This document shows, in pieces, positions 3,404 to 43,238 of a stretch of 64,000 bases of DNA. Every line of letters begins with the position of its first letter. Positions within the stretch are counted from its first letter, which is position 1. A program made the position numbers and the translations under genes. The notes under the pieces were generated by a model. It searched no databases, was not told the DNA's origin, and worked only from the letters and a program-made list of their open reading frames with translations. This stretch comes from Haplodiscus bocki. Lineage: Eukaryota. The stretch covers positions 62,620,001 to 62,684,000 of the forward strand of contig OZ296656.1 in the NCBI GenBank assembly GCA_965655095.1. Reading direction: 5' to 3'.

Positions 3404-5129
3404 ATATATATGCCAAAAACAGTTATTGAATTGACCACGAAAAAGATTACAGTATGGCTCAGTCAACATTAACGGGAAAAGATGCCATAAAACGACTCTC
3501 CCAAACCAATTTCCATTCTGATATGCAGTACGGCAGATACCGATCTAGTGAGAACGGAAACGGATTTCCGTCGGCCAAGTTTCGCTCTCTTGAATAGGAT
3601 ACCAGATAACGACATTCTCATCGGGAGAGACCACATTCTTGGAGGAACAAAACGAAAAAGTAAAGCGATTTAAAATTGAGGGACTGATCAAAAAGCCATA
3701 CATTCTATCGAACTGTAACTAAATCATAAAATTTGTGAAAAACTGGAACTAAAGGAAATAGTAACCTGCTTCAAGGAACGGCTAATGGCGACATAACGGT
3801 AAAACTAAGCGGCAGACTTCTTTGAACATCAATGCATCGAAAATCTGACGCCCGAGGCAAATAGGGCAAGATCTCAGACATTGGGAAGAAATCACAGTTA
3901 CAAAAGTCAAAAGTCAGTTCAGTGGTAAAGGAAGATCATGATGAAGAATCAGAAAACCAAGCCGAACCATACCGAAAAAAATCTGAGGCTACTACGGAAT
4001 GACACAAACCAACGGAATTACTAAAGTTAAACGGAAGTCAAGATAAATATGGAGCTGAGGAAGTGCGCTCAGAGGAAAAATAACAATAAACAACAAGAAA
4101 CAAAGATCACAACCAATCCAGAAAAAAATGCGCCGCCAAAGTGGTCAAACCAATTGAACAGCGCATCATAATAGTTCAGTTCAGCGCAACGGGAGAAGCA
4201 CTTTGTAAGAACCCTCAAATAGAGAAAATACTTCAAATTGATGTGTACAAGTACACCAATACGACTCCTCAATGCAGCCTCCGACGCCAACCAATCTGAC
4301 AGCTACGCAGCATATTTGCCAAAAATTCAATTAAACTTCACCAAAAAAATTCAATACCCTGAATGGTTTTTCAACAAAAAAAACTGATCCTAAACGGAAA
4401 AACGGCAAGCAATTAGTTAGTATCTGACCAAGTATAAAAATTACACCAAGAGCAAATGCAGAACCAAGTAATCAAAAACGTTCAAGGCTTTTGAGCAGCA
4501 AAAAAATCTGAGCCAGAAAAAGAGATTTCCGTGGGCTAAGTGTAAGTAGATGTGAGGAAGATCGAATGCGAAGTGGCATCACCATTTACAAGGAGTTATC
4601 TACGACCACTAATACGTCTGGCTTGGATGAGCAGAAAATATACATGCAATTACGAAAGAAAAAAATCAAATAGAATATTGTCTGAAAAAAATTTTATCAA
4701 ATGGATCCAAAGTGCAAGGAAAGCCCAAGAAAATATTTCGAAGAAAAAGTAGGATCAAAAGTTGCGATAAAATTGAATTAATGACCAATTGCATAATTAA
4801 CCCTACAAGCACCAAACCACTTCTCATCCAATTGGAAAAACCAGCATCCAATGAATTAAATGAAAAGTTCTGTCAGGCCACCAGAAGCGAGTAACGGATG
4901 TCGTGTTCGACATACAGCAGAAAGAAAAAGAAAAAGAAAAACTTTGGAAAACTAAACTTAAAAATATAACATTTTGTGTCCGCAATTTTGACTGCCGTTC
5001 CGCAAGTCCGAACACGTCCCCAATTTGTTTACATCCACTTCAAAACTAACGCCGCCATGACACTTTCACCTACTTTATATGGACATCGGCGTCACCCAAC
5101 AAAACAATAGACTCAACTCCCGAGATAAT

Positions 5130-5295
5130 AACGTCATCTGACGTCATCTGACGTCATGTGTGTATTAATCTTATAAATACTGACGACTCCCAAGTCACAT
5201 GACTAGGTCACGTGACTGACGTCATTCTCGGAGCCAATCCTGTGCTATCTTCATTCTGATTCGCTCCCGAGAGCACAAAAAATAGTATATACAGC
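5130..5295 (+). promoter_or_regulatory. Putative LTR U3 promoter: three CRE palindromes, E-box, CCAAT box, TATA-like box
   Basis: TGACGTCA at 5139, 5149, 5217; GTCACGTGAC at 5207; CCAAT at 5234; TATATA at 5286; all retained in the 3' LTR. Confidence 0.6.
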
Positions 5296-5744
5296 GGACG
5301 AAATTTGCCCCTTCAGAGAGGCGCCGTTTCAGCTCAGACCAGATGTCTAACGACCCGTGAAGTCACTCCATCCATTTTCCAACAACAGTAGATCGAATCC
5401 AGTGCACTACTCTTTGAGCAGTAATCGTTAATTGAATAATGTTTTCACTTTTGCTTTTGATTCTAACTTTTTCTTTCGGCGATATTTTCTTCATAATCTA
5501 ACTTTAACTTTTTCTTCTGATGTAAACTAAATATCCAAGTAACCAAGTTTAACTCCTAACTAAAAAACAGTAAAATAACTGAGTTCAACTTAAACATTAT
5601 TCAACTCAACTTTAACTTAAACTTTTAAAAAAAGTAACTCTTACCGAGATTAACTCTACTTTAACTTTTTTTAACTTTAACTTCACACTAAAATCTAAAA
5701 CACAACTTTCGGTTCTACTCAGTGAAGTTAAGTCAAATCCTCTG

Positions 5745-6230
5745 TGAGGTGGTCTCGTCAAATACGGACTTGTTCAGCCTTGGTCAAGTACCGGTTGATA
5801 AAATATTTACTATCCCTAAAACTTAAACTCTGCTTTGACTTTATTTAACTTTAACTTTACACTAAAATCTAAAACACAACTCTCAGTTCTAGTCATGGAA
5901 GTGAACTACTCAAATTCTCTGTGAGGTGGTCTCGTCAAGAACGGACTCATTCAGCCTTGGTCAAGTACCGGCTTGATCTTTGGAAAAAACTCAAATACTT
6001 TTTGAGGTAGTCTCGTCAAGTACGGACTTGTTCAGCTTTGGTCAAGTACCGGTTGATAAAATATTTATTATCCTTAAAACTGATAACTTTACTTAAGTTT
6101 TATTCAACTTTAACTTTAAACTAAAATCTAAAACACAACTCTCAGTTCTACTCATTGAAGTGAACTACTCAAATTCTCTGTGAGGTGGTCTCGTCAAGTA
6201 CGTACTCAATCAGCCTTGGTCAGGAACCGG
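5745..6230 (+). repeat. Four copies of a 50-bp GC-richer core in the 5' LTR separated by AT-rich spacers
   Basis: TGAGGTRGTCTCGTCAAGWACGGACTYRTTCAGCCTTGGTCAAGTACCGG at 5745, 5922, 6003, 6181. Confidence 0.92.
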
Positions 6231-6821
6231 CTTGATATCTGGAAAATAACTAAAATTTCCTTCTCATTTGAGAGGATCAAACTAGTCTTCAACTGAGGTA
6301 AAGTCCTAGCCTGTGGCGGATTTATTAAAACAATAAACTAAATACTCTCTTTATTTAATCTGACTGATGATTCTTTTAGATGTCCTTGTGTTCATAATAT
6401 TTATAATACTTTTCCTCTTTTGTATCTTTTCTCTATGATTTATACCTTAATTTATTTCATTTGTTTTGATACTTTAATACTATTAACTTTTCTGATATTT
6501 TGTCTTTCTGATTTTACTGATAATTGTAAGTCACCAGTTGATATTATTTACGATACTAATTTATCTGTTTATAATAATAATAACAAGGTTTCTTCACAAT
6601 ATTCACCAGATAGAAAAAGTCCTTGCTTCCGAACTCACGCCTGAGACGACCTTTGCTGAAGTGCAGGAAGGCAACAGTCGCAAAATTGAATTAGGAGACT
6701 TGTCCTGAGTTTAGGGATAGTTTTCTAGCGTGGAATAGAGTGGCTTTTGAGACTTTCCGCTGCTATTCCATAAAGACCAAGACCCCAACCACTCGCACAC
6801 TCTCTACACTTTTGCACTTCA

Positions 6822-7060
6822 CAAACTGGTGCGACAAGTGAGGCTAATCAAACTACACAAACTGGTGAAGCGACCTACCACAACAAATCAGTCAGGCACT
6901 ACCACAAAACTCAAACTGGTGAGTGAGGCTACAGATAAGCCGATAACGACAAACTGGTGAGGAAACCACCCACAAACTGGTGTGACCAACAAGACAGTGA
7001 GGCAGACACACAAACTGGTGAGACTTGAAATTTTGCAGTAAGACAAACCTCAACTGGTAA
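6822..7060 (+). repeat. Dispersed CAAACTGGTG repeats in the 5' leader
   Basis: Copies near 6822, 6858, 6913, 6950, 6974, 7011 and a degenerate one near 7051. Confidence 0.9.
6827..6840 (+). promoter_or_regulatory. Primer binding site of element 1 (tRNA not assigned)
   Basis: TGGTGCGACAAGTG 3 nt after the LTR end; TGG complementary to tRNA CCA; same 9-nt core in element 2. Confidence 0.8.
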
Positions 7061-7147
7061 ATTAAAATTTTAATTTCTTACTTTACTTTAAACTGATAAA
7101 AGAAGCCGTCGAGAGACAGACACCCACGAAACCAGACAATACTGACG

Positions 7148-8419
7148 ATGGCAGAGAACACAGTATCATTTTCTGACTTGGCTTTAGACAAATTCTCAGG
7201 TAACGACCCTGATGAAATTGCAAAATGATTTCTGCTTACAGGTGAAAACAAAATCAACTTGTCGCTTGGATCAAGATCAACTGACGCTGCCGAAAGAGCA
7301 CGATATCTATTCAGAGAGAAAGCACTATTTTCTTCACTTCTTCGAGGAGCAGCAGCAGAATGGTATACAGACTCAATAGGCGATGCAGCAACTTGGGACC
7401 AGATCAGAACCGCCTTCATTGACAGATTTTCAGATAACCGAGACAAATTTAAACACAGAATTACAGCACAGAACTGCGTGCGAGGAAATGAAGAAATAAT
7501 CAAAAACTTCTATCACAGAGTCAAAAGCGCAGTTGACAAAGGATGACCACTAGACCCAAATGGGACCTAGGCCGAGAAAGATAACCAACAGAACCAAAGA
7601 AATGCCAAACACATCGAATTCACAGTTAGAGGAGTCAGACCAACCGGATTAAAAAGAAAAGCTCATGAATACCTAATAGAACATCCGAATGCTACCTGGG
7701 ATGCCTTCCAAACCCATATCACGTCCAAAGACGTCATCTACACCATCAGTTCAGAGCTAGTGCCTAATGCCACCTCAGATCAGAACAACAAACTCCACTC
7801 TCTGGAGCAACAGATCAAAGAACTCACTGCATTATTCAAACAGCAACAAGTAAACCAAATCGCCCAACCTAATTCTCGACCTGCGAACGCTGATAACAAA
7901 TCAAGACCGAATATGACCAGATTCTGTTCATACTGCCGAAGAATTGGACACGCTCTCATGTACTGCAGAACCAAAGCTTTCGAAGATCGGATTAAAAGAC
8001 AACAGACACGAAAAAACCAAGAGCGCCGCACAGGCTTCACTCATGATTACAATAAACGAAGAGGACCGAACTTTGGGTCTCAGATTAATCAGAGTTTCAG
8101 TCAGCAACCCAGATACGGAAATCAGAACAACCAGACACCCTATCAAAAAACTGTCTTCAACCCAGATAGGAACAAAAACCCAAACTCAGATAGACAATAT
8201 CACCAGAACAGATCAAGCAACTCCTGCAACAACGGACCAGATCACCGTCAGCAGGCTCAGTATAACTTCAACGCTGGACCAGAGATTTCTGATACTCAGT
8301 AGAACAAGAATTTTCCACAAAGCAACAACCTACCTACACCCAACTCAGTTCAATTCATCGACAATCCGGGACAAGATGTAGTAAATACCCTTTCAGGTTT
8401 CTTTCATTTAAACTTCTGA
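7148..8419 (+). pseudogene. gag: gag (capsid-like region plus CCHC zinc knuckle), several in-frame stops
   Basis: MAENTVSFSDLALDKFSG..., LRGAAAEWY...TWDQIRTAFIDRF retrotransposon gag motif, CSYCRRIGHALMYC knuckle; colinear with element 2 gag. Confidence 0.9.
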
Positions 8420-8432
8420 TGTCTCCGAGACC
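8407..8432 (+). promoter_or_regulatory. -1 programmed ribosomal frameshift site gag-pol
   Basis: T TTA AAC heptamer in gag frame just before the gag stop; pol ORF at 8419 is in the -1 frame; followed after 7 nt by GTCTCCGAGAC. Confidence 0.8.
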
Positions 8433-11400
8433 TGATGAAAAAAGTAACTTCAGATCACGTTTTCATTTGAATGTCTTCTACTTTCCCACCGAAAACTGCC
8501 AAAAAGACAGTGGACTCGAAATCAACATTATGCTCGTCACTGGTGCAGCCTGCTCAATAGTAAATTACCGAACCTTTCTTGAAATTGCACAATTTAGACA
8601 AATGATCACCGTAGTTAGAATTAAACAGAAGACAAAAACCTACACTGGCGATATTGTACCCATGATTGGACACACTACTCTATCTTTCAGCTTTGATTCA
8701 AATGGAGAACATTAATTTGAACTACGAATTTGGATTACAGAGACACAGACCTCAAATCTACTCGGGATCGATTTTTGCGGACAATGCGTTTCGAAATTAC
8801 ATTTTGAAAAACCAGCAATAGAACTCAAGAACACAGCGAATACTATTTGTTACGGTAATATGTGTTCAACAAATCCTTATCCCTTCGTTTCAAAAATACA
8901 CACTATCAGAATACCCCATCAGATTCACATTGATGCCAAAACTTCCAAAGTCTGGAAATACTCATCAGAAGATAAATCGCAGAGTTTCCCACCAGGGACC
9001 ACATTCATTCCTCATCGACACTCTGTCAAATCAGGACTAGATTTTGTTAATGTACTATGCACCCAATCCGAGAACTATCTTCCTATCTTGATGGAAAAAA
9101 AACAGAAACCACCAAATAAAGCTGAACAAATGAGTTATTGGATACTCTTCACTTGATATCTCAGACTATGAAAGACCCAAATATCAGATCAAAGACTGTG
9201 TCCAGATGGTAGTTTCAATCCTTACTGAGAATGGCCAACATAACGAATGTTTCCTTCTTCATTCCACAGTTCCATGCGAACCTGACATTCAAGATAAAAT
9301 ACAAATACTGATCGGGAAGGACGAAAAAATTTTTCAAGCTAACACCGCCATCGCTCATTGCATTTCAGCCGATGCTAAAATGAGTGAAGGATTTGAAGAA
9401 ACAATTTGTCGTAGAGTGAACGGACTTCAAAAAATTTGTCGAAGAGCCAAAACAACCGTAGGTTCAGCTCTCCCCTATTGGGATCCAGAATCCAACAACT
9501 TCATCTACAATCTCGTAACCAAATCGAAATTTTTCGAAAAACCAAAATTAGACAACATTCGACTCTCACTCGCAAATATGAGAGGACATGCTCTACCTAA
9601 CAACATCACCAAAATTTCAATGCCAAAAAGCGGATGCGGACTAGATAAACTCCAGTGTACCGATGTTTTCAAACTCATACAGGACACTTTCAAATACTCT
9701 GGGATCCAGATTCAGATAATCATCAAACTAGAAACACACTCCATAAGAGGAAACCCGTCATCCAACAACGAGCGCTATGTCGAAGAGGAAGTAGAAAATT
9801 ACACAAACGAATGGACTAAAGAACGAGATGAACTTGAAACTGACTTCACGAGAGCTTCAAAATCCTGTCAACCACCTTGTACCGAACAATTTCCTATCTT
9901 GAGATCAAAACAACTTAAGGATGATCTGATCGATTACTACCTTCAATACCAATCAGAGGACATCAAGAACCTCGTAAAACATTTTGACTTCCGATACACC
10001 AACCTCGAGGAGGAAGAACTAGTTACCCTTATTGATGTGATCATAGACTCCAGAGACGTATAATCTCAACACAATTTCGACATTGGCCAGACCAAACAGA
10101 AATTTCATGTCACCTTGACACCCAATTCAGAGCTCAGAAAACAGCGAACTAGCAAATGCCCTCTTCATCTCAAAGAGAAACTATAAAAACTACTTTGACA
10201 ACTCCAAGACTCTGGTATCATCCGAGAAATGGGGGTTGATGATGAACTAGGATCACACTTCGTCAATTCAATCATTTTACTTCCAAAAGCAGATTACAGT
10301 AAACTAGTCATCGACGCTAGATATCTAAACTCCCTCACCGAACTAACTAACTATTTATGGCCACTAGAGCTACTCCAGATGATTATGACTAGAATCAATG
10401 GCAAAGACTTCACAGCAAGCGATCTTTCATGCGCTTACCACCAAGTCCCTCTATCTGCTGAAACACAGAAACTGACAAGTTTTGTATAAGGAGGAAAGAA
10501 TACACCTATCAAGTTGGATACTACGAACTCTGCGGTCTGCCTCAATGGTTCAGCCGGATGATGGCTATCAAATTCGAACCCCTCATCAAGAAGAAGGAAG
10601 CTATAACCTACCTTGATGATAGTCTACTCCAATCCCATACCAAAACAGAAAAGTATTATGAAAAGTAAAGTTAAAGTTCCTTGGCCACGTTATCTCCGAA
10701 CAAGGGATTCAACCAGCTGCAAAAAGAATAAAAGACCTACAGAACCTGAAATCTCTTGAGAGCGAAAGAGATGTATCGAAAGTCCTCGGATGTCTAGGCT
10801 TTTATAGCTGTTAGATCAAGAACCTGCACGTCGATAGTCAAACATTCTACGAACTGATCAAAGATACTACTCTTTTTATGTGGACCGATCATCATGAAGT
10901 ACTTTTTAAGAAGTCAAAACCAGAATCACCGAAGACACTATATTGGCAGTACCTTCAACCGAGTATTCCTTCCACATACACGTCGACCCTTCTTATGTCG
11001 GAACCGGTTGCATACTAGTCCAACAAATTCCCGAAGGAAAGAGAATAGTCTCTTTCAAATCTAGAGTTTTTGATAACGCCGAGCAAAACATGTTGACCCT
11101 CCACTGCGAAATATATGGAATAATATCTGCACTACAAACTTACGAACAATATATCATTGGATCGCCCTTTCCGATCTATCTCTACTGTGATCACAAACCC
11201 ATACTCTACCTTTGGGGAAGAAAAGGACAGCTATCAAATCGATTTTTCAAAGATCAAGTCATCATCACTAAATTCCACAACCTAAAGATCATTTGGACAC
11301 CTGGATCAAATCTCGCCTTCCCCAATATTCTCAACAGAAACGTGACATTATCAGTGGCAAACAGATTGCAACTTCAACATAAAGAAATTCCGCTTGATAT

Positions 11401-13878
11401 TTCATTCTATTACCAAGACGGTCACAAAGTACACTAAACCATCAAACACGAAGAAGAACAAAACGCATCCTACAACGACTGCTACCCCATCATCTGCCAA
11501 GAAGGCAATACGAGAAAGACCCTCAGACTTAAAAACGATGGAAACGAACATCACGTTGAGGATTATCTCGAAGATAATGAAATCCTAGCCACCATGCAAG
11601 AGATGACTGACTGCTTTGAACTCAGAAAGACCATTAACCAATATAAACAACTTTGCTCAAGCATTAGCCCAGCATCAAGTACCTTTAGTCTTAACGAACG
11701 CGACTATAGTGATTTTGAACAGTATGATGAAAAATCAACAGATGACGAAACCGAAATAGCCGAACTCAACCTTGAAAGTCAAGACCCTGATTTTCGAAGA
11801 GATCACTCCGTAGCTCATGAATTGTTCCGCACGAAGACAAAAGATAAACCGATTCTCAAGAAACCGATTTCTTTCGAACTGTTCCCTCACGTAGACACAT
11901 CCGACTTGATTCAGAAACTCAGTGATTTTGCTCGCGACGCTGACTTAGACATTCAAACACTACTAGAAGAACAACTCAACGATCCTGTATTACAGGTCGT
12001 TCGCAAATGGATGAAAACCTCAGATACAAGACCTCAGAAGACACCGGATATTAACCAATCAAAAGCTCTGCTATCATATCACAACAAATTTGAACAACTT
12101 CTCATCGAACCTGACATCAACCTCCTATGCTACAGAGAACCGATTCAGGATACCTGCAGAACCGAGATGAAAATTTGTGTTTTCTTATCGCTATTCCTAC
12201 CACTCTTTCGTTTAGCCCACACTCATAGCCATAGTGGTCATCCTGGAATATTCAAAACCTTGGAAAACATCAGACAATACTTCTTCTGGCCAGGACGATA
12301 CAAGTGGATAGTATACCTGATAGAAGACTTCATCGAATGCCAAACTAATAAAACGGAAAGACATGACCTACACGAAGCACCATTGGAACAATGGGGAGAA
12401 CTAGAAACAACACCTTTCAAGACGATACATATCGATCATAAAGGACCATTTCGCCCTAGCAGTAACTCCAACACTCATTGTCTTGTCGTGGTAGACGCGT
12501 TTTCTTGACTAATTGGAGCCTATCCAGTTAGAGACACCGGAGCCCAGACCACTATCAACGCAGTAGAAAAATGGATCACATCATGTGGTATAACCCAGAG
12601 AATTGTTCAAGATAACAGTTCAAATTTCATAAAAAGCGACTTCTTCAACTGTACTAAAGAGTTTGGAATGACCCTTGCTCCTCGTACTACCTATTCTCCA
12701 TGGACCAACGGCAAAGTCGAAGTACAAAATCAGCACCTCACCAGATACTGGCGAAACTTCATGAATCAATCTGGAAACAATTGGTCAAAACTTGCATCCA
12801 AATTTGCGTTAGCACATAACACGAGTGTAAACTACACAACTGGCCAGACACCTTATGAGATCGTTTTCCGAACAAAACCGCAGATTCCAATGACTCTTAA
12901 GCTCGGACTATTACGAGACAAAGATAAACAATGCAAATCAGAAATCTGTGATGGACTTCAATCTCATACGCACGGTGAAAACAACCTGCCGAATAATTCT
13001 CTTAGCCGCCTACTTCGACCAGAGCTTTCCGACGAGCTACTAAAACGAGAAAATGAATTTAAGCGAATTTACTCGTCAATCTATCAGAGGTGTCGCCGGA
13101 TTACGTCAAAAGTACACGAGCACCGAAACCGATTCAAGCTCGGACGACCTATCGGCACCGGACAAAAAGTGTTCTTAGAAAACCACGCGCAAGACCTCAC
13201 GAGGTCTCAGAAACAGAACCAACTACGAGTCAGTCCGTTCACAGTAACAAAACAAATCACGAATAAGACGTACGAAATACGAGAAGATGCAAATCCCGAC
13301 AATATCAAAAAGCACGCATAGAAATCACCTGATCGAATATCTCCCGAAAGAAGAACGACTCCCTCCGTTTATTACTAACTACGCTGTCATATCCAGAGAC
13401 TCCGATTTCTCTAAACATTTAGTCAATTCGCAAATTAAACAATATGAGTCCGGTAAAGAAAAACACTCCCTTGACGTAATGCCCTTTATTATAATACCCA
13501 TCCAAAACAGTTCAGACAAACAACAAAAAGATAATAATGAATTTTCACCTATAGCAGTCTCTGGAATACATTCGCCTGATATTTCAATGCAGCAATCACC
13601 CAGAAGTCAAAAACCGAGCCCTTATGAAAATAGAACATTTTTTCACCTACCCCAATTACAATACTTTGCCCACGACTCCTATGCTTAGACAACCGCACGA
13701 TCTACCAAACCCAATACGCGATTTTCAACCTTTTAATTGAAATACCCCAACAAATTTAACTAGTGCTACCGATAAAGGCAAAATAGCCCACTTCGCGACA
13801 AAAGTTAAAAAGAAGTATAAAAAAAATGATGCTAACAGCTCACTCAGAACACTAGAAAGAAAGGGATACAAAGACTAG
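8419..13878 (+). pseudogene. pol: pol polyprotein: protease, dUTPase-like segment, macrodomain, RT, RNase H, unknown spacer domain, integrase; multiple stops and frameshifts
   Basis: LVTGAACS (mutated DTGA), LVIDARYLN and YLDD (RT), IHVD...CDHKP (RNase H), HTHSHSGHPG, HIDHKGP, NGKVEVQN (integrase). Confidence 0.95.
9299..9724 (+). CDS. TARG1/OARD1 (Poa1p-like) macrodomain embedded in Pol between protease and RT
   Basis: AIAHCISADAKMSEG, FIYNLVTK, KPKLDNIRLSL, ISMPKSGCGLDKLQ match the TARG1 motifs LAHCISED, YIYYLITK, KPTYENLQKSL, LSMPRIGCGLDRLQ; uninterrupted within ORF 9206-10063. Confidence 0.93.
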
Positions 13879-13918
13879 AGCAATTCATTAAAGAACTATT
13901 CACAAAACAAAAATTTAA

Positions 13919-14425
13919 TCAATCATCAATCTCGAGGTGGCCGCCAGTTTCTGCGAGAAAGTCGAGTATTTCTCGGTACTTGAACGTCTCTTCCCAGCGC
14001 TGTATAATTTGTCTTTTCCCCATGTATCCAAGGGACCCATACCCAGCCTGGATGGCCTCCAGCTTGTGCCAAAGCACATCTCCAAAAGGGGCAACCAGAG
14101 AAGCCAACCACTGAAACAGAACAACATCATTTTTGCAATTCGAGGAACATCAACTACTAGAAGAACCAGAACATTAATATTGCAAGCCAATGAACATCAA
14201 TTAACAAAGGAAATTTGAAGAAACAAAAACATCACCAATCCTTACATCATCCCCGGCGACGACTTCCAGCACAGTCACAAATGACTGTGTAAAGCTCATC
14301 TTGACCATGTCGTCTCTAATGAACAGTGGCATTCTCAACTCTCTTACTATGGAGTGCAACCTCGCCATCTCTCGAGGACACCAAAAAGCTGCCCAGACTG
14401 CACCATCGGGAGTTAGCTCTGCCAT
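13919..14425 (-). CDS. Candidate two-exon antisense gene, 123 aa, unknown function (exon 1 14425-14246, intron 14245-14111, exon 2 14110-13919)
   Basis: GAT|GTAAG donor, TTCTGTTTCAG|TGG acceptor, T-rich 135-nt intron holding three in-frame stops, in-frame join ...VVAGDD|WLASLV..., ATTAAA immediately after the stop. Confidence 0.65.
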
Positions 14426-14799
14426 CTCAAGAGTAATGATGATGAAATTGAATGAAGAACAGAAACACAAGAAAATGTGAAGTTTCACTTTCACGCATCC
14501 CCATGCTAGTTCAAAAAGTTCCCAGATTTTGTTCAACGGCGGTGGGTCTACTCAGTCGCAGAAGCAACTTCGTAAGCAAACGTAAAACAAATAAGAAACG
14601 TACCGTAAAGAATTTTGAAGTCAGACTGACGAGCCCAAAAAAAGGAATATCTTAAAGATAGAATCCCATCTGTTACACTAAACAACAATTGACGACAAAA
14701 CCAACAAACCTTTTCTTTTATGCAGCCTTTGTTCAACTAGTCTTTTGTCCCACCAAACCTCTCTCTACCCTTTGCTAATAAACAAACTTTTGATTTATC

Positions 14800-15115
14800 C
14801 ATCTATTGTTTTAACCTTCGTTTGTTCCACCCGTCTATTGTTCAACACATCTATTGTTCAAACCTTCTTTTGTTCCACATATCTATTGTTCTACTCTTCT
14901 ATTGTTCTGAACCCTTTTGTTCTATCGCTCTATTGTTCGATGCTTCCTTTGTCATAATCTTCTATTGTCTTACACTTCTGTCATTTTACTCGCCTATATC
15001 TCCCTACTGTTACAACCTTCTATTGTCTTAACACTTCGCTGTTCCACTCCTCTATTGTTAAACAGCTCTACCGCCTCTCATAAACAAATTTTTGTTTTAA
15101 ACACCTATTGTGCTA
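14800..15115. repeat. Imperfect tandem array with ten CTATTGT motifs (AACAATAG on the - strand, SOX/HMG-box-like sites)
   Basis: CTATTGT at 14803, 14835, 14851, 14883, 14899, 14930, 14962, 15020, 15052, 15105 plus TTTGTT variants. Confidence 0.85.
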
Positions 15116-15284
15116 ACACCCCTTGATCCACTGCAAATCCACATTCCAGAATTCAACTAAATAAAGAATTGACGTAAGCAAAATCGATGATACGGTCGTG
15201 TTCGATCACGCTACCCAGAACCAAATTTTGAAGAATCATAAAACTGAAAGGAGTATAAAGTGTAAATACATGATTTTCAGTTGC

Positions 15285-16059
15285 ATGCCTAACATAGAAG
15301 AAAACGCGAGAAACCTAATCAACTGGTATATCCTTCCCATAGAACCCCAAAACTACCATCATAGAAGACAACACTTCACCAGAAACCAAAATCCACCAAA
15401 CTAAATAAAGTTGCAGTAACAACTATCTTGATGATTTCTAAAACAAATAACACAATCGTTGAAATATTCCAATTTAAAAAGAAAGACCCACATTGCATTC
15501 TCCTACATACAAGAAACCCTCAGACTAAAGAAAAGAAGCTAATTGCCTTCATAGAAGGAACCCTATATTTTCCACTTTTTGAAACAGTCTTCACGCTTCC
15601 ACATGCCATCCCGTCCAATCTACACCTAGCCGAACTAACAGCCATAACTGATTACAATGATGTTTGATCTTGACGAAGAAATTTACGACGAAAATTAAAT
15701 TGAAGAAATTGAACTCAACTGCCCATGGACCATAACCATAACCTCAGGAGCAAGTCATGGCTTTATGACAACAAAACTCAGAAGGTCATTTCAATACCCA
15801 TTTTGGCTAACAGCTAGTATCTACCCCATTGACAAACCCGCTAAACCAATCATCCTTGATAATAAAAGAGAGACTCTTGCCTTCGCAAAAACTTTTCATC
15901 ACTCTGACTCTCTACAGGAATTATCCTGAACCGCATCTCACTCAACACGATATTCATACTTTACGAGAATTAATGGACACTGCAAAATTTCACATGGGAC
16001 CTCACACAAGTTACTACACAGAATATATAAAGAAGATCATACAGAATCCATTCAACTAA
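15285..16059 (+). pseudogene. Degenerate accessory ORF of unknown function (~250 codons) between pol and env
   Basis: Consecutive ORF fragments 15198-15404, 15428-15667, 15829-16059 with the A/C-rich composition of the element's coding strand; TTTTCAG acceptor-like site at 15280. Confidence 0.5.
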
Positions 16060-16098
16060 AAGTCGTCTTTGCTGATGGTGACAGCTTTCCTTCCCTAT

Positions 16099-16325
16099 AA
16101 CTAGTGGTGCTAGTTTTACACTGGTGGTGCCAGTCATATTCACTAATCTTTTCATTTCAGGCGCATTTGCTTTTCTTAGCTAGTGGTGCTAGCTCATTAC
16201 CTTTTCCACTGGTGGTGCCAGTGATGTTCACTAATCTTTTCATCTCAGGTGCATTTACTTTACTTAGCTAGTGGTGCTAGCTCATTTCCTTCATACCACT
16301 GGTGGGTGGTGCGTGGTGCCAGTGA
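16099..16325 (+). repeat. ~87-bp repeat x3 containing hairpins with a constant TGGTG loop and splice-acceptor-like sites
   Basis: AACTAG-TGGTG-CTAGTT 16099, ACTGG-TGGTG-CCAGT 16120, AGCTAG-TGGTG-CTAGCT 16178 and 16266, CACTGG-TGGTG-CCAGTG 16207; CACTAAT-pyrimidine tract-CAG|G ending at 16160 and 16248. Confidence 0.85.
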
Positions 16326-16441
16326 TGTTTGTTAACAATTTGCTTTCAGATACAAAATAAAAATCTCTTGACTTTCTCTTTCAGACGTCTTACCAATACT
16401 TTCCTTTTCAGCATTAACAAAATTTTATTTTCAGCGATTTG

Positions 16442-16605
16442 TTCCGGCTTAAAAGTGCCGAAGAGTGTCTTTCCGGTTTAAAAGTACCGACGTGTTCCGG
16501 CTTAAAAGTGCCGAAGTGTGTCTTCCCGGATTAAAATTACCGATGTGTGGCAATTTCCGGCTTAAACGTGCCGAAGGGTGCCTTTCCGGCTTAAAAGCGC
16601 CGACG
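16442..16605 (+). repeat. Six tandem copies of TTCCGGCTTAAAAGTGCCGA (small hairpins)
   Basis: Copies near 16442, 16471, 16495, 16524, 16555, 16584; CGGC/GCCG stem changes to CGGT/ACCG in copy 2. Confidence 0.9.
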
Positions 16606-16860
16606 CGTTCTTCATTTTCTGGCTAAAGTTATCGCCGTGGCCAATACTTTTGACTTCAATTCTTCATAGCACCTCGACCAATCATTGTAAAATCCTTTCA
16701 ATTTCTATGCACCTTAAACACTACATTGCTAAAGAGCTTCAGTACAAACCTTCTTCGTCATTCGGTTAGCGAGTTGCTACTTTTATCCTTGTAATAACAT
16801 TTCTCTATTTTAGCTAAAATCGGAGAACCGTTTTCATTTGTGATAATGAATAGTGAAAAG

Positions 16861-18964
16861 ATGGCTATCATAGAATGTGCTATATTTCTCTTGATACTAA
16901 AATATTCTATATGTGACAAAGACGAACCCAAACCTGACGACATTGCACCTTCTGTACAAGTATCCCACTATGACTGCACAAGATGACGGAAAACAACCTT
17001 TATTCACTCAACGAATTTGAACCTAGTAATATGGCACCTCAGACTATTCAGATGAATGACGTGAAATTGACTTTGTATACCAAACACTTCCGGACTGAGA
17101 TCAATGCTACAATTTGCCGAATCAAACACCAAAGAAACAGATTTTTTTGCGGGCTGCATGATCTTACTAGTATTGATGTTGAACAACCTCAGATAACAAG
17201 TGACACAGATTTGATTCCTGAACAATGCAAGCAAGCCTCTGAGGGAAGATCACTAACTTTATTTGACCATAAATTAACTTTCGAAAAGGACAAGAAAAAA
17301 ACTCATCACAAATGGACTGGAAATGTAGATGGAGACAACCGTAACCGTAATGGGAAGGTTACCAATGGATAACTAAAGATACCATTGAAAGTCATATTCA
17401 AGATATCACCTTGAAAATGAAAATTAAAGATGGCAAGATATTCAACAGAAACGATCAAATACTACCTTGTGACTCGGAAAAACTTGGATGTGAAAGTACA
17501 TCATTAGATCCTTATGCCTACACGTGGAAAGCCCCTGAAAATTGGATCTTATCAGTGCTATAAGAAGACTATGCACATATGCTAAAAAATGACAACCACG
17601 ACTACATAGTTAGCGAAACCACTTCAGAAAACAAGTACTTCTTCGAAGTAAAGAATAACCCTCAGCATCTTTGAAACAAACCAACTGAAGTCTACCCAAC
17701 CATTTAGGGCTCAATGTACGTCGCAATTCACTATGATGGTTTTGAAATGAAAAGAGGACGAAAACATAACGAACTGGGACCTCATCTCTTACAGTATCAG
17801 AATAACGCCTTCTTCTTGAAACCTGGGAATCTCTACGTGTACAGTCCCCAACCTAAACCAGCTGACCCATGAATTAATACATGGTTAAATATGGACTACG
17901 AACTACAACAAAGTACAAAGCTTGATTACCTTTTCTTTGAGAGTTCCAGAGCACTACAGGCATCAGAACTAAATCTATTGCAGAACCAATGTGAACAAGA
18001 GAGAATCCAAGTTTTCACTATCCTGATGTTATCACTTGAAAACCCCAGACTCGCAGGATATACGCTCACTGGAAACAGATCAATGTTTCTAGAGACAGAT
18101 GGAAGCCTAGCTTGGCTCTACTCCTGCCCACAAGTACGATCACCCCTACATACCCTTAACCAATGTTACGACAAAATACCCATCCTCTATAAAGGACAAA
18201 TACAATTTGTAGATCCAATTACCAGACAAATCTTGCCCGCTGCTTTGCCACAAAACTACTCCGACCCAATCAACAATTTATTGCAAATGGATATGGACAA
18301 AAAAGACTCATGGTACTCCCTTACACCCGAAATCACGCACAGAGACAGACCTGCAGTATTCGCCCCCAAAGACATATTTCCCTTCAATACGCAAAAGTTT
18401 CCCCAATCAGCTAAAGCAGGTATGTATACAAAAGGACAACTCAGTGATTATTGGGATGCCATCCTAATGAGTTCAGCATCAAAGAATGCCTTACAGAAAA
18501 TTACACTAAACTTAATAGTCCCCTCAAATGCAAAGAAAGGCCCTGATGGATATAGCTACTACGCACCCCGAACTGACTTCTTCGTAGATAGCATGATATG
18601 TCCGAAAAAATTCGAGAACAAATTTGTCCCGTTTTTTGGGACCATTAGCTATTGGCTCGATAAATGTGGAATCTGGTTTGCCAAATTCCTCTTCGTAAAA
18701 CTGATTATTGACATTGTTGTCACTATCATGAGAACCTTAGGAATACACCGAATAACCAGAAGATCAGTCAGTTTTGGAAAAATCCTACTATCAGCAACGT
18801 ACAGCCTCTTCGTGGTTTCAATATTTAGCTCAGTCTATTCACCAGCCAAACCCATCGAGTCTTCGACGCCTATAGCTGTAGAAATGCAAGAATCCACAGA
18901 ACATATCTACCCCTCTGTTCAAACACTACCCAACAATGCCCCTAACTCAGTTTCACCCGTTTAA
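16861..18964 (+). pseudogene. env: env-like glycoprotein, class III fusion protein-like (chuvirus G / herpes gB-like pattern), disrupted
   Basis: Signal peptide MAIIECAIFLLILKYSIC, VSHYDC...YSLN, Cys-rich ectodomain, NQCEQER...LAGYTLTGNRSMFLETDGSLAWLYSCP, C-terminal hydrophobic segments; colinear with element 2 env. Confidence 0.82.
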
Positions 18965-18994
18965 AGTACCTATTAAGTTTTCAATTTCACCATT

Positions 18995-20240
18995 ATGCAC
19001 TAAGACGACCATTCGTTCTCCGACCTAGACTCTCTTCTATCTAAAGACAATATCACAGAAGACGACCTCCTACAGCTTTCAGAACTATTCCCTGAAGAGC
19101 CGAAAACCCCTTCTAAACAAACCTCCATCAATCACGAGCTAGAGAACCTCTCACTTACACCAACTGACAAACCTACAATTGCCCTAAACGTTAGACCCAG
19201 TAATCGAAAATCAACTACCCCCTCACGTCAACTGTTTCATAAACAGAAGAAAAACGAAGAAGCCACTTCCAAATACATTACCACCCAAAACCCTCAGTTC
19301 CAATTTAACCTGACCTACAGAATTAAAGAGAATATTAACCAGGGGAGAATAGTATTTTGGGACTCCAAACGACAAGAGTTCACCCTAGAAAACCTATCAC
19401 TTAAATATCACTGACTATCTGTCCCCCTCGGATCAATTTCAGCAATCTGTTAAGTTTATCTCCACCTTCACTGAAAGAGAAATTTGATGACGAACAACTT
19501 CTTAGTACCGCCCTTGCTATTGAACTAGAAGATGTCAAAAAGACCTTAGCCCAATTCAAATTAGACAAATCCAAACCCCTACACAAGGGACCCTTCAGCT
19601 TGAAAGTAGATTTCTAGATAAAGAGGAATTTTAAAGAGATGGTTGATATTGAATCTCGACTAGAGAAACTAGAACCGGGAGCACAACCCCGCGATTGGAA
19701 TTTTTATGAGATTTTTTGGAAGCTTGAAAACTTTTCAATAATTTTCAATAAAGCCAAATTTTTTGAAGAAACGAAAAACAAAAATGATACTGATCCAAAT
19801 TTGGCACGCGACTTTTGTAGCACAGCTTTTCTCAGCAAACCTTATGGCTACAGTTTCTTTGTCCACGCGTTTCCTTATGGATGTGGTCCAGCACTTGGCA
19901 AATCAATGTCTATCACTATATCTCTGATCTCCGAACACTTCGACGATATCCTCACTTGGCCTCTAGAGGAACAATCCAAATCAGTGTTTTCAGACAACCC
20001 AAATCTAGTTTAATCTGGACTAACTTTTTGAAGACTAATGATAAAACGACACCCTGTTTCTGACGACCATCACCCATACAACCAAACCCCAGTTGTGGTT
20101 TCTTCTCCTATCTTCCCCACGAAGAAATGTTCAAGTCCGATAGAAACCTGATGAAGAACAACAAAGTCTATTACCAAACAAAAATTCTTGATTTGCCGCG
20201 AACCCCGGTTTCAATTTCATCAAGCGTGAACCCCCGGTGA
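18995..20240 (+). pseudogene. Post-env ORF4 (~410 codons, disrupted) ending in a short coiled-coil plus TRAF-type MATH domain (approx. 19700-20190)
   Basis: IFWKLENF, FCSTAFLSKPYGYSFFVHAFPYGCGPALGKSMSI, FDDILTWP, RGTIQISVFRQ, CF*RP...NPSCGF...LMKNNKVY follow the TRAF-C consensus (IWKI, S.PF....GYK, NG.G...GTHLS, YD.LL.WPF, F.RP....N...G, KDD.IFI). Confidence 0.87.
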
Positions 20241-20242
20241 GA

Positions 20243-22247
20243 TGTCGTGTTTGACATACAGCAGAAAAAACAATAGACTCAACTCCCGAGATAATAACGT
20301 CATCTGACGTCATCTGACGTCATGTGTGTATTAATCTTATAAAAAAAGACGACTCCCAATTCACATGACTAGGTCACGTGACTGACGTCATTCTCGGAGC
20401 CAATCCTGTGCTATCTTCATTCTGATTCGCTCCCGAGAGCACAAAAATTAGTATATATAGCGGACGAAAATTGCCCCTTCAGACAAGCGCCCTTTCAGCT
20501 CATACCAGATGTCTAACGACCCGTGAAGTCACTCCATCCAACTTCCAACGACAGCAGATTGAATCCAGTGCAGTACTCTTCGAGCAGTAATCGTTAGTCG
20601 AATAATGTTTTGACTGTTGCTTTTGTTTCTAACTTTTACTTTCGGTACTATTTTCCTTATAATCTAACTTTAACTTTTTTTTCTGATGTAAAACAAATAT
20701 CCAAGTAACCAAGTTTAACTACTAACTAATAAAAACAGTAAAATAACTAAGTTTAACTTAAACATTATTTAAAATAACTTTAACCTAAACTTTTCAAAAA
20801 AGTACATCTTACCGAGATTAACACTACTTGAACTTTATTTAACCTTAACTTCAAACTAAAATCTAAAACACAACTTTCAGTTCTACTCATTGAAGTGAAC
20901 TCAAATCCTCTGTGAGGTGGTCTCGTCAAGAACGGACTCATTCAGCCTTGGTCAAGTACCGGCTTGATATTTGGAAAATGCTCAAATGCTCATTGAGGTA
21001 GTCTCGTCAAGTACGGACTTGTTCAGCCTTGGTCAAGTACCGGTTGATAAAATGTTTTTTATCCTTAAAACTAGTAACTTTACTTAGGTTTTATTTAACT
21101 TGAACTTTAACTCTAAACTAAAATCTAAAACACAATTTTCAGTTCTACTCCTTGAAGTGAACTCAAATCCTCTGTGAGGTGGTCTCGTCAAGAACGGACT
21201 TATTCAGCCTTGGTCAAGTACCGCTTGATAAAATATATTCCATCCCTAAATGTTAAACTCTGCTTTAACTTTATTTAACTTTAATTTTAAACTAAAATCT
21301 AAAACACAACTCTCAGTTCTAGTCATGGAAGTGAACTACTCAAATTCTCTGTGAGGTGGTCTCGTCAAGAACGGACTCATTCAGCCTTGGTCAAGTACCG
21401 GCTTGATCTTTGGAAAAAACTCAAATACTTTTTGAGGTAGTCTCGTCAAGTACGGACTTGTTCAGCTTTGGTCAAGTACCGGTTGATAAAATATTTATTA
21501 TCCTTAAAACTGATAACTTTACTTGAGTTTTATTCAACTTTAACTTTAAACTAAAATCTAAAACACAACTCTCAGTTCTACTCATTGAAGTGAACTACTC
21601 AAATTCTCTGTGAGGTGGTCTCGTCAAGTACGTACTCAATCAGCCTTGGTCAGGAACCGGCTTGATATCTGGAAAATAACTAAAATTTCCTTCTCATTTG
21701 AGAGGATCAAACTAGTCCTCAACTGAGGTAAAGTCCTAGCCTGTGGCGGACTTATTAAAACAATGAACTAAATACTCTCTTTAAATAATCTGACTGATGA
21801 TTCTTTTAGATGTCCTTGTGTTCATAATATTTATTTCACTTTTCCGCTTTTGTATCTTACCTCTATGATTTATACCTGAATTTATTTCATTTGTTTTGAT
21901 ACTTTAATACTTTTAACCTTTCTGATATTTTGTCTTTCTGATTTTATTGATAGTTGTAAGTCACCAGTTGATATTATTTCCGAAACTAATTTATCTGTGT
22001 TTAATAACAAGGTTTCTTCACAATATTCACCAGATAGAAAAAGTCCTTCCTTTCGAACTCACGCCTTACACCACCTTTGCTGAAGCGCAGGAAGGCAACA
22101 GTCGCAAAATTGAATTAGGAGACTTGTCTTGAGTTTCGGGATAGTTTTCTAGCGAGGAATAGAGTGGCTTTGGAGACTTTCCGCTGCTATTCCATAAAGG
22201 CCAAGACCCCAACACCTCACACACCCTCTACACTTTTGCACGTCACA
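20243..22247 (+). repeat. Element 1 3' LTR (2005 bp) with six copies of the 50-bp core
   Basis: TGTCGTGTT...CACGTCACA followed by TSD CGGA; cores at 20913, 20994, 21175, 21352, 21433, 21611. Confidence 0.96.
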
Positions 22248-25200
22248 CGGACAAAAAAGGTGGGTTCCAAATCGGCATCTGTGTTAACAGGAAAGTAGTC
22301 CAGAGAAACACAAGTGCTTTGGATATTCAAAAATAAAACAAAATTTTCAAAACTCTCAGTCAAACCGTCAATCATTGAAGTAATCATCAGGAAAAAGTCC
22401 AAGAAAGTATATCAGATAGTTAAAAATTGCTGTAGATCTCCCACATACACCTGAGTTGCACTTAGAGAGAAAAGCAATCATCCAGTCAGACGAAAAAGGA
22501 CTGTCTAAAAGAAATGGTAGGTGGAGATTTCTCTGAAGGTCTACAGATTCGAAAACGTAATCTGCGCAATACAATATTTCAAGATAAATTTATGAGACAA
22601 CTTTTACAGACTGATGAAATTGAAAGCAACGGTGCAATTGAACATTGAGTGTCCTATAATTTTTTGCCACATCTTTCTTAATATGTAAAAAAACTGTTCA
22701 TTCAGTAGGGTTGCTTTTTTTTCAGTCTAGTTTCGCCAAATCTTTGTATTCGAAAACAAATATCAGCAGTGGGGTTAAAACGAAAACTTTTCAAGCAGCA
22801 GTTTGGGGTTCAAATCTCTTTCCTGTCGTTTTTTCTGCCTTCACTGAGCTTTGTTACAACTTCTTCTGGTTACCAGGCATAGTTGGTGGGACAAAAGGGT
22901 TCTGAAACGCTAGTTACTGCTTCAAATCACAGCAGGTACCTGATAAGTTGTTATTATTAGTACAAGTTCGCATTATGACGATTGTTTTATTGTTCTATTC
23001 ATGTCGAATTTGTTATTTTTTGTTGGTTTTTAGTCGGTGTTTTATGAAATAAATTGTTACGTCTTGTAGGTACTTTGTTTCTTCTTTAAAAAAAACTTTT
23101 TGTATTATCACAAACTTTTTAGAGATGTTAACGCATTTACCATTTTTCCTTTAGTTGACCTCCCCGGTGAAATTCTTGAAAACATGCAACAGCAGTTAAA
23201 AGCAGGCAGAGGCAAGCACTCAAAAACACCTGGAAATTTTTTCTACAAAAAAATTCGGTACTGTTCCCGAGGCAAACTCATCATACCCCCTTTATTGCGC
23301 AAAGCTTGTTGATACCAGGAATATCCAGAAACACAGACAGAAACCCCATCGAAAAATTTTGGCACTTCCAGACATAAAACAGTTTCAAGGAAAAATGTGA
23401 TGCCCAGCTTCGCATCGCATTCTTCGTACCAGAAGATTTCAAATAGTAAAATGGCCAACTCAGGAACTTTTTTCTGACAAACAAAAATGTTTCGAAACCT
23501 TTTTGTGATACTCCTTTCTATTGTTTACCAACACTTTTGCACCGGACACATTGGCAGCGCAAAGACATCCAGAAACACAAAAAATGTGAAGTAGTGCCAG
23601 AAACGGTCTCTTACTATTTTTTCGGTACTGTGGTATCGTGAGGAAGCAAGTTTTCAGCTTTTCGACAATTTCTGGTCATACACTCATAGAACTTACTGAA
23701 GCGTTTGCGCTGGACAGATGAGCAGCGTTGACTCTGACGTGTTCTCGGTTTGCTAAAATGGTTTCCGTCCAAAAAATTCGGGAAAGAAAAATTGTCACTT
23801 CAGTTGGGGAGTTTTTTTCTTTTTCCAGATTTTGCGAGGGTCACGCAAACTTTGTGTAGGAAACTGATTAATCTCTCTCGAAAAACATATCTGAGATGCC
23901 ACCGCAGACAGGTAGCCCCAAACTAGAAGGCACCAATTCTTTTCCGAATTGGTTCTGTGTTTTCCCAACCATTGTACGTTTTTGGTTCTCCTTGATCTAC
24001 AGTACAGTTTTTCTGATATACTATAGTATTTTTCTGAGTTTCGAAAAAAAATTTCTGCAGAAATGAATTAACTCGACTTAATCCAAATTTTCGAACAGTT
24101 AGCAAAAGTTTGACTTGGTCAAAAATTTTAACTTTCCCAAGTAATTAACATGAATTTATTGTATGGATTCAGTTATGAAATTGGAAATATTTGCCTTCAA
24201 AAGACTTCTCCAGCGAGTGTATTTTGTTTTACGTATCTGGGTTGCAATTAAAAGAACTTTTTTCCTGGAGCAAGTCGTTGTGTACGTTGTAAACTCCTTA
24301 GAGTCAGTCAGGCTTAAAAAACAATTGGTGCTTTTTGTTCTCAAAAATCGAATTTTTCACCCGAAACATTCGACTGGATTCTTCCACGAAAACGACAATC
24401 AACAATCTTTTAGCAGTAGAAATTCTGCTGTTATCGGAAAGCTGGCATATGAGACAGGGATCGATTATGCAGAGATTGATTGGACAGGTATTTTTCTAAA
24501 CAGATTTATCAACCTAATTTTTCACAAAACTACCTGCGGCTTTTCATCGATCAACGTCCTCCTTGAACATTGTCACATTGTGAGAACGCGTTGAATGAAA
24601 AATTTTGCTGTTTGATCTCTTCAATAGAAACATTATTCGGCCAAAGCCAGCAAGACTTGCAATTTCGTATGACGAATCTCTACATTCAAATTGTCTTCTC
24701 TTGAAGACTTTTGGCTCTAACTCTTCTGCCAACGTCTCATTCGACAGTTCCGTACTTGCAAAACATCCTTCAGCAATGGCATTTTAATACCGGTTTTTGC
24801 ATTGGAGCTTTTGTGGATTGAATTGATAAGCAAACTCGATTTTTTTTCTTTGCAAAACAAACTGGTTGAACTCTGCCATCATAGCCTCGGTCAACTTTTT
24901 CTATCTCCAGAACAATTTTCGTATTTTCCCGTTGCTGGAAAATGTCATGGCCTCGCAAACTTTGAGGACCGGTGTATCCAAGCAATGGGAGTTGTCTGAT
25001 TTTTCTGAATACAAACTTGCTTTCCTCAAAATATCTTTATGCATTCCAATCAACAAAGTATCAGTCCACTCTTTTATTACCTGTACACATCGGAAAACTT
25101 CAATTGTTGCGTTTAGTTCCCAGCAACACAAAATTGATAAACCGCATGTGTCAAAATTACACGAATTCATCTCGATGATGAAATTCGATACTTTCAAAAC

Positions 25201-31204: not shown

Positions 31205-31722
31205 TGTTGTAAACCGGGGGTTCTTAAATTATTGCTTTGCTCTCACTTGCGCATAAGTCTCAAAAAGTTGTTATAAAAAGAACATAAATTTTAGAAAGGT
31301 CTTTTACAAATATTGGAAAATTCTAAGTCATGAGCTTTTCTGACTTAGCTGTTTTTATAAATAAGTCTTAGTGAAAATTCAAGACTCTTTGTCAGTTGAA
31401 TTTCAGGGGTGTTTTAGAGAGAGCAAAGGAAAGAGAGAAAAGAACGACTATTGCCTTCTTAACGTCCGCATAGGATCGTTTGTTTCTGTTAGCGTATTTT
31501 TCTCTCTAGCTCAGGACAGTTGTTCTGTCACGCGGCTTTTCCTTATTGGCTGAGCGTTAAAAGAATCGTCTTTTGCAATTTCATGCGAGCGCGTTGCTAT
31601 TCGCTCAGACAATCTAAATGCTAAGATAATTCCTCTTCGGATATTATTTCTCTCTGAGTCATTTTCCCTGGATATTCTCCTTTAGGAAAATGAACTAAAT
31701 TAAACGGTAGCGCATTGCTACA
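31205..31722 (-). repeat. Element 2 3' LTR (518 bp)
   Basis: Near-identical to 43239-43756 (about six substitutions by eye). Confidence 0.97.
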
Positions 31723-31826
31723 ACTCACCCCAGTTGACAGAGAAGACTGCTTTAGCCGTAATATTCGTCAACTGATAAAAAATAACAAAAGAATAAATCA
31801 AGAAAAGATAATATAATGTATGCAAT

Positions 31827-36083: not shown

Positions 36084-36106
36084 TGCTGTTTTAAGAAAAA
36101 TGAGAA

Positions 36107-43236: not shown

Positions 43237-43238
43237 GA

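Follow-up and report, generated by a model that had tools for sequence, protein, structure and literature searches.

A 64,000-nucleotide stretch of the Haplodiscus bocki genome (GenBank assembly GCA_965655095.1, contig OZ296656.1, positions 62,620,001 to 62,684,000 of the forward strand), referred to below as the window, contains a 17.3 kb element at positions 4899-22247 that is bounded by long terminal repeats (LTRs) and a 4 bp target duplication. On its sequence features this is a Ty3/Gypsy (Metaviridae) element. In addition to gag, pol and env it carries six extra modules: a TARG1-type macrodomain within pol, an antisense gene, three small genes (ORF-A, ORF-B and ORF-X) and a coiled-coil+MATH gene of TRAF type. 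All of the extra modules are under purifying selection. We lean towards the view that the element works like a complex retrovirus and that its macrodomain and RING-less TRAF protein counter host defences; the extra genes would then be aimed at innate immunity.

The window copy has decayed. Stops or frameshifts interrupt gag, pol, env, ORF-B, ORF-X and the TRAF gene, while ORF-A and the antisense exons are free of stops. Further copies were sought throughout the 1.5-Gb genome from which the window comes. A DNA search with the MATH region scored 40 matches of 326 candidates. In the ten best of these the 3' block was 84-88% identical to that of the window, and nine of them also reached the macro region. 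With the macro region as protein query, 6021 candidates were obtained and 150 scored, of which 19 lay in open frames of 1870-1892 amino acids, and at least 150 matches were scored for ORF-B. Ten young copies were picked solely for an open pol. The gene order in open copies was gag, pol, antisense gene, ORF-A, ORF-B, env, ORF-X and coiled-coil+MATH gene, and open frames were present for env, ORF-X and ORF-A in nine of the ten copies each and for ORF-B and the TRAF gene in eight each. LTR pairs were 99.3-100% identical in seven of the ten, and the other three, split by indels, were 96-100% identical, indicating that this large family moved recently.

Ratios of nonsynonymous to synonymous substitution (dN/dS) were calculated pairwise by the Nei-Gojobori method from 9 or 10 copies per gene, with bootstrapping over codons only. 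Values for the extra modules were 0.07 (macrodomain), 0.10 and 0.10 (antisense exons), 0.14 (ORF-A), 0.08 (ORF-B), 0.10 (ORF-X), and 0.14 for both the coil and the MATH domain of the TRAF gene. The core genes gave 0.10 (gag), 0.05 each for protease, reverse transcriptase (RT)/RNase H and integrase, and 0.06 (env). Two chance frames used as controls gave 0.45 and 0.45, one of them a hydrophobic frame of 109 codons that overlies the motif array described below, and the sense frame over an antisense exon gave 2.0 (7 copies). Since the Nei-Gojobori values carry no transition correction, 0.45 serves as the neutral yardstick.

The sequence-only reading, made before any copies had been compared, had proposed a complex-virus-like organisation and had named findings that would tell against it, among them other copies lacking the cargo and neutral evolution of the cargo. 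Neither of these two was obtained, because the extra genes are a family trait under purifying selection. Nine of the ten best MATH matches cover the macro region and three sister families are alike, and the dN/dS of 0.07-0.14 contrasts with 0.45 in the controls. The stops and frameshifts that riddle the window copy might suggest neutral passengers or one-off insertions into a dead copy; this explanation is refuted by the family-wide and sister-family occurrence of the genes and by their dN/dS, and we give it practically no weight.

The sister sample consisted of 10 loci from three related families whose pol is 55-60% identical. All ten loci have a macrodomain with Lys and Asp aligned to the TARG1 catalytic positions, and nine have homologues of env, X, TRAF and the antisense gene, the tenth being rearranged. 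In the eight loci mapped, the order was an ORF-B paralogue, gag, pol, sometimes another ORF-B paralogue, the antisense gene, one or two ORF-A paralogues, one or two ORF-B paralogues, env, X and TRAF; the exception was one sister family with a duplicated antisense gene, located at both ends in LTR positions. Altogether the sister families hold 2-4 ORF-B paralogues, one of them 5' of gag, and 1-2 ORF-A paralogues. In the RT tree the order of the four families was left unsettled, with 5 of 10 inner branches open. Three sister-family pol frames also occur in tandem with a period of 17,066 bp (G000:C271).

The gag gene (7148..8419, plus strand; PF03732) is a 439-codon frame in open copies and contains four stops in the window copy. 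A predicted -1 frameshift site, TTTAAAC (8407..8413, plus strand), is found just 5' of the gag stop in all ten young copies and in the window, and frameshifting at this site would make Gag-Pol. The pol gene (8407..13878, plus strand) is broken in the window and is a frame of 1886-1892 codons in open copies, encoding protease, macrodomain, RT, RNase H, integrase and an SH3-like tail. Pfam was run on the window copy, as 77 stop-to-stop frames, and on 14 open frames. Window frames matched Retrotrans_gag, RT_RNaseH, Integrase_H2C2, Monjiviricetes_fusion (PF24664, in env) and TRAF-mep_MATH, the first four of which bear out the gag, pol and env-like glycoprotein of the sequence-only reading.

The macrodomain (9340..9720, plus strand) lies in frame within pol, between protease and RT. 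The window domain matched human TARG1/OARD1 with an E of 7e-21, so that the TARG1 type originally proposed was upheld; the separate module also proposed was not, since the domain is in frame inside pol. Pfam gave no macrodomain match in the 77 window frames. Lys (LVTK, 9512) and Asp (GCGLD, 9632) at the catalytic positions are intact in the window, and both were retained in all 20 macrodomains inspected. We take the TARG1 catalytic residues to be numbered Lys84 and acidic residue 125. The human structures (PDB 4j5q, 4j5r) were matched with an E of 1e-26, and the element shares their catalytic-position residues, differing in that its domain sits in a polyprotein. In the available part of a TARG1 review, the acidic residue is named as Glu125, while the aligned PDB chain has Asp (PMC7050489). 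In a distant Gypsy pol (P0017), a TARG1-type macrodomain is placed between RNase H and integrase, and this different position suggests a separate capture.

The host encodes an expanded set of enzymes that could write ADP-ribose. PARP-domain matches numbered 31, of which nine lay in one open frame with a superfamily 1 helicase domain. These helicase-PARP fusions occur as at least nine long single open frames of 882-2243 amino acids with one or two C-terminal PARP domains, and form at least two subgroups that are about 30% identical. All five frames scanned were of Upf1/ZNFX1 type with the NAD-site His and Tyr intact. ZNFX1 is reportedly an antiviral RNA helicase, and a literature search did not find a description of ZNFX1-type helicase-PARP fusions. 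The fusions are candidate RNA-sensing ADP-ribosyltransferases and a plausible target of the macrodomain, and nine such genes in the host give context to the macrodomain reading.

The macrodomain may instead serve replication, clearing the ADP-ribose that the DNA-repair enzyme PARP1 leaves at cDNA ends or integration sites, with the TRAF-like protein keeping the producing cell alive or dividing. Its fixed place within pol, adjoining RT, is consistent with this, as is a host PARP1, found in a single 899-codon open frame. The review cited above describes TARG1, in the part available, as a housekeeping-type hydrolase that is active on nucleic-acid ends and together with PARP1, and on modified proteins too (PMC7050489). 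The lack of any NF-kB match in a Rel-homology search of the host points the same way, and the extra domains of the planarian element Burro have been read, in the section of a review available to us, as meddling with apoptosis and ubiquitination (PMC6431247). However, it is established that most Gypsy elements have no macrodomain and replicate nonetheless, a second Gypsy element in the window with 71% RT identity and a gB-type env has no macro segment, and the PARP expansion of the host consists of RNA-helicase fusions, not repair PARPs. A replication or host-cell role is therefore considered unlikely, while deserving to be kept in view.

The second recognisable host-type domain is encoded at the 3' end. 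The TRAF-like gene (19456..20201, plus strand; PF21355, E 2e-18) is intronless, broken in the window, and encodes a coiled coil followed by a TRAF-C/MATH domain. The TRAF-type MATH domain of the sequence-only reading was recovered in the window (TRAF-mep_MATH, E 2e-8), not as a stand-alone domain but as the C-terminal half of this 248-252 amino acid product. Animal TRAFs of known structure (PDB 6ku5, 5yc1, 1ca4) were matched with an E of 1e-13, and heptads were seen in the coil; the coiled coil and TRAF-C are common to both, and the RING and zinc fingers of animal TRAFs are missing from the element. No RING pattern was found in the TRAF-like proteins of any of the four families, which have 2-7 Cys, and no RING or zinc-finger Pfam match was obtained. 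In this the protein presumably resembles TRAF1 or truncated dominant-negative TRAFs; RING-less TRAF truncations are dominant-negative.

Modelled as three copies, the TRAF protein scored 0.69, compared with 0.00 for the best control, on a scale whose mark 21 of 30 solved pairs attained but none of 23 single chains did, with contact agreement of at least 37% and a predicted local distance difference test (pLDDT) score of at least 67; memory of solved TRAF trimers may be the source of this predicted score. MATH identity across the families is about 30%, diverging much faster than RT. One canonical host TRAF gene was detected, which is split by introns, and the one host MATH exon found, the last, is 29% identical to the element MATH domain. 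The earlier suggestion of host-gene capture is thus supported in so far as both recognisable domains are of host type and the element TRAF gene is intronless, in contrast to the intron-split host gene. A 238 amino acid intronless coiled-coil+MATH protein (P0138) is 41% identical over its full length, and a search of the present genome with it returned nothing above 49% identity among 150 scored matches; judging by these sequences the TRAF gene is probably present in another lineage. The TRAF-like gene also occurs as a tandem array of five open copies with a 2791-bp period (G000:C10:65794031-65805914).

The remaining four extra modules are orphans. The antisense gene lies on the minus strand, with a first coding exon of 60 codons (14246..14425, ATG at 14425) and a second of 63 codons (13919..14110); splice-site patterns predict an additional non-coding upstream exon with a donor near 14603. 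In the window the donor is GTAAGG and the acceptor TTTCAG, and neither coding exon has a stop. In all ten young copies the donor reads GT(A/G)AGT and the acceptor CAG, the exons being in phase around an intron of 122-135 nt, and all ten have a second donor-acceptor pair 5' of the ATG; AATAAA follows directly after the stop in nine. Among ten older copies the splice sites have partly decayed, and both were kept in seven by the patterns used. The homologues in the sister families are intronless and run collinearly across the predicted exon junction, which supports the splice independently. The antisense ORF first noticed in the window is therefore real, consisting of two coding exons with donor and acceptor, and from these signals the reverse-strand gene is likely spliced.

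Synonymous divergence of the antisense exons was 0.95-1.3, compared with 0.08-0.32 elsewhere in the same ten copies, and the exon types form a mosaic, 59-98% identical among the copies. Old antisense alleles appear to have been kept and shuffled, possibly by balancing selection or small-RNA escape. Database homologues of the antisense family number 415, and the 120 listed include no named protein. A natural intronless sister-family protein was modelled as six helices with a pLDDT of 92. Searches of Pfam gave nothing, the PDB sequence profile nothing significant and ESM Atlas nothing usable for the antisense protein; Foldseek gave no match to the model at E<=0.001 and the best VIA Z was 4.1, a blank that does not prove a new fold. 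A guess that the protein has a death fold was left unsupported by the Foldseek and VIA results.

The antisense and ORF-A genes diverge from an intervening array of 10 CTATTGT motifs (14803..15111). All ten occurrences in the element fall within the array, 10-11 were counted in two young copies, and no array was seen in three sister loci. CTATTGT is taken here to be a Sox-like site. The array is a candidate internal two-way promoter or enhancer, which would drive the antisense gene on one side and the block of ORF-A, ORF-B, env, X and TRAF on the other.

ORF-A (15431..15667, plus strand) encodes 78 amino acids of no known family and has no stop in the window. Leave-one-out profiles recovered it with E of 2e-5 to 2e-4, and its one or two paralogues in the sister families lie at the equivalent place. 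A 52-codon frame 5' of it (15255-15428) had a dN/dS of 0.26 (0.13-0.48), which overlaps the controls, and was not counted as a gene. ORF-B (15657..16059, plus strand; 133 amino acids) overlaps the end of ORF-A and has a stop and a frameshift in the window. It belongs to a paralogous family with the motif C-x-W...T-x-x-x-W and invariant Cys, Trp, Thr, Trp and Leu positions, and its profile collected 186 clusters (50% identity, E<=0.001), a few of which are clearly unrelated long proteins. The ORF-B model (pLDDT 88) has four strands followed by three helices. Its best Foldseek matches, SsgA/SsgB, were not significant (E 0.08) and were not reproduced by VIA-align, where the best Z of 6.5 involved helices only; again the blank does not prove a new fold. 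The SsgA/SsgB fold is, we assume, Whirly-like. For ORF-B, the ESM Atlas yielded no more than hypothetical clusters below 0.8, and the PDB sequence profile nothing significant. Tandem repeats (88 bp; 53-60 bp) occupy 16098-16610, between ORF-B and env.

ORF-X (18995..19453, plus strand; 152 amino acids, two stops in the window) has an N-terminus that is acidic and rich in proline, and its C-terminal domain, of about 70 amino acids, is conserved; across families ORF-X is 35-44% identical. It gave no PDB sequence-profile match, and Pfam was blank for ORF-A, ORF-B, ORF-X and both antisense exons. The single ORF of about 250 codons in the sequence-only reading was not found and probably corresponds to two genes: 15431-16059 comprises the two overlapping genes of 78 and 133 amino acids, and the 152 amino acid gene lies separately between env and TRAF. 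By analogy, these orphans probably act as regulators or as additional antagonists.

If most of the extra genes were a transactivator, an RNA export factor and an antisense repressor, the element would chiefly regulate itself, and host antagonism would be left to one module or none. The antisense gene, with its predicted splice and poly(A) signal, does face the motif array and the small sense genes; the N-termini of the sister antisense proteins are acidic and proline-rich; the best matches of ORF-B, weak as they are, are SsgA/SsgB; and internal env promoters occur in Tor elements according to the passages available (PMC4402516). Self-regulation leaves unexplained the capture of two host-type domains with their active-site or structural residues kept, the fold match is neither significant nor present in VIA-align, and as regards the orphan genes the idea is compatible with host antagonism by the two recognisable modules. 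As an account of most of the extra genes it seems to us quite improbable.

For the favoured reading, in which the macrodomain and the TRAF protein act against host defences, the following mechanism is proposed. Gag-Pol would be made by -1 frameshifting, and because this product carries the macrodomain, the domain would be packaged with RT and integrase. Once packaged, it could strip ADP-ribose set by host PARPs on element RNA, cDNA or proteins, the likeliest writers being the helicase-PARP fusions in their expanded family. The product of the coiled-coil+MATH gene would trimerise and would occupy docking sites for TRAFs or the host's own TRAF trimers; as a RING-less TRAF without ubiquitin ligase it could restrain stress, death or immune signalling in a dominant-negative manner.

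Several points weigh against this reading. Every functional step of the mechanism is one that we infer, and four of the six extra modules give no hint of their function. Selection on the extra genes within the family is purifying, not positive, and the dN/dS values lack a transition correction and come from non-independent pairs. TARG1 represents a housekeeping-type class of hydrolase, and its type differs, as we understand it, from the MacroD class of RNA viruses. Formation of cross-trimers is uncertain because the element and host MATH domains are only 29% identical. The link to NF-kB drawn in the sequence-only reading found no support: the Rel-homology search gave 0 matches in the host, which is not proof of absence since an exon-wise search can miss genes, and the same kind of search found only 2 TIR and 1 zf-TRAF matches, so that a classical TRAF-to-NF-kB target is unsupported.

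A more far-reaching version would make the element part of an undescribed clade of enveloped invertebrate Metaviridae that independently attained lentivirus-level complexity, with up to about ten accessory genes. In this version the clade would be engaged in an arms race with an undescribed sensor family of RNA helicase-PARP fusions, against which it would use a TARG1 eraser that it packages and a TRAF that serves as a decoy, and the antisense and ORF-B proteins would have new folds. We hold this combined proposal only tentatively, doubting it somewhat more than we believe it.

The env gene (16846..18964, plus strand) encodes a 705 amino acid protein of gB/class III type (PF24664, E 4e-44) and is broken in the window, where PF24664 was matched in two pieces (E 1e-22). 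Hydropathy indicated a hydrophobic N-terminus and a C-terminal membrane segment, and an R-x-K/R-R site is absent from env.

The LTR-bounded 17.3 kb unit of the sequence-only reading was borne out. The 5' LTR (4899..6823, plus strand) contains internal repeats of about 170-260 bp, the 3' LTR (20243..22247, plus strand) lacks about 180 bp near its own 5' end, and the two are 94.4% identical over 1740 aligned columns with TG...CA termini. The target duplication CGGA flanks both ends (4895..4898 and 22248..22251); an exact 4 bp duplication was present in five of seven young copies checked. Seven copies measured 16.4-17.7 kb, and LTR length ranged from 1.43 to 2.12 kb, varying through the internal repeats.

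The primer-binding site (6827..6844, plus strand), after a 3-nt spacer, is complementary with one mismatch to the 3' end of tRNA-Met (CAT anticodon). In young copies it is an 18-nt match to genomic tRNA 3'-half fragments that end in CCA and have CAT in the anticodon loop. At the three primer-site matches examined of nine, ARAGORN detected no intact tRNA gene. Mature tRNA-Met 3' halves with CCA are dispersed in the genome, apparently as reverse-transcribed primer fragments. From the primer site on into the leader, young copies have 3-7 occurrences of the motif AAACTGGT (window equivalent 6824-7065). A purine-rich tract was not found directly 5' of the 3' LTR in the window and four older copies, where the adjacent 15-25 nt were inspected and no search elsewhere was made.

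The order protease-RT-RNase H-integrase is of Ty3/Gypsy type. Among PDB structures RT is closest to Ty3 (E 5e-36; next group 6e-24), and a Gypsy-type Pfam set is present (PF17917, PF17919, PF17921, PF24626), with BEL/Pao families not among the matches. The likeness to a complex retrovirus concerns the way of working only; the element is a member neither of Retroviridae nor of Burro. The second Gypsy element of the window (31205-43756, minus strand) has 518-bp LTRs that are 98.8% identical and an env 35% identical to that described here, and profiles of the extra genes gave no match in it.

Gypsy elements with a gB-type env are widespread across animals (Chary and Hayashi, eLife 2026, PMC13524379, available portion). 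Like the ancient errantiviruses described there, the present element has the order gag-pol-env, a separate gB env after pol with signal and membrane segments, multiple recently active copies and an invertebrate-type host; it differs from them, as they are portrayed in that portion, by its six extra conserved modules. The main text of that paper makes no mention of macro, TRAF, MATH or accessory; its seven supplements contain no TRAF, and the four 'macro' rows inspected of ten were species names.

The claim of novelty has to be narrowed. The combination, or a TARG1-type domain in a Gypsy pol, was not found in literature that lay outside Repbase, GyDB and most subscription journals. MATH_TRAF_C together with an env related to mononegavirus fusion proteins is known from Burro/GYPSM1, a Gypsy element of Schmidtea mediterranea, and a Dugesia element has MATH as a separate accessory ORF (Arkhipova and Yushenova 2019, PMC6431247, in the section available). 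Burro thus shares the domain, the env and a proposed interference with host pathways. Unlike the present element, it is described there as more than 30 kb long, with one polyprotein of about 4,900 amino acids, env in frame between gag and pol, and BIR, BCL2, ankyrin and dUTPase domains, none of which occurred in our 77 window and 14 open frames; at 16.4-17.7 kb, the present element has a separate env after pol, a TRAF gene at the 3' end and a macrodomain between protease and RT. That review mentions neither 'macro' nor 'antisense'.

Macro domains on enveloped reverse-transcribing elements are also known, from ORFs of fish epsilon-like endogenous retroviruses. These belong to Retroviridae and have macro as additional ORFs, with the class unstated and a TRAF gene unmentioned in the passage available (PMC4977317). 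The Tor elements of Oikopleura dioica are env-bearing Gypsy elements, some of which express env from an internal promoter after pol; they differ in that an accessory gene block is not described in the available text (Henriet et al. 2015, PMC4402516). Complex retroviruses resemble the present element in having several selected accessory genes, one of them antisense, a comparison of working only, and differ in that the element has a Ty3-like RT and a class III env. Plant Gypsy lineages are also said to have extra and antisense ORFs, and the source cited for the fish macro-domain ORFs is reportedly Basta et al. 2009.

Env-carrying Gypsy elements are usually regarded as three-gene genomes. A selected accessory set that is fixed across four families would mean that retrovirus-like complexity arose independently in Metaviridae. 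Structure work could be aimed at two orphan families, the antisense gene and ORF-B, whose models are confident and gave no structural match. A single genome holds a testable pair, an ADP-ribose eraser in the element and an expanded helicase-PARP family in the host, and this pair bears on whether animals use ADP-ribosylation against retroelements.

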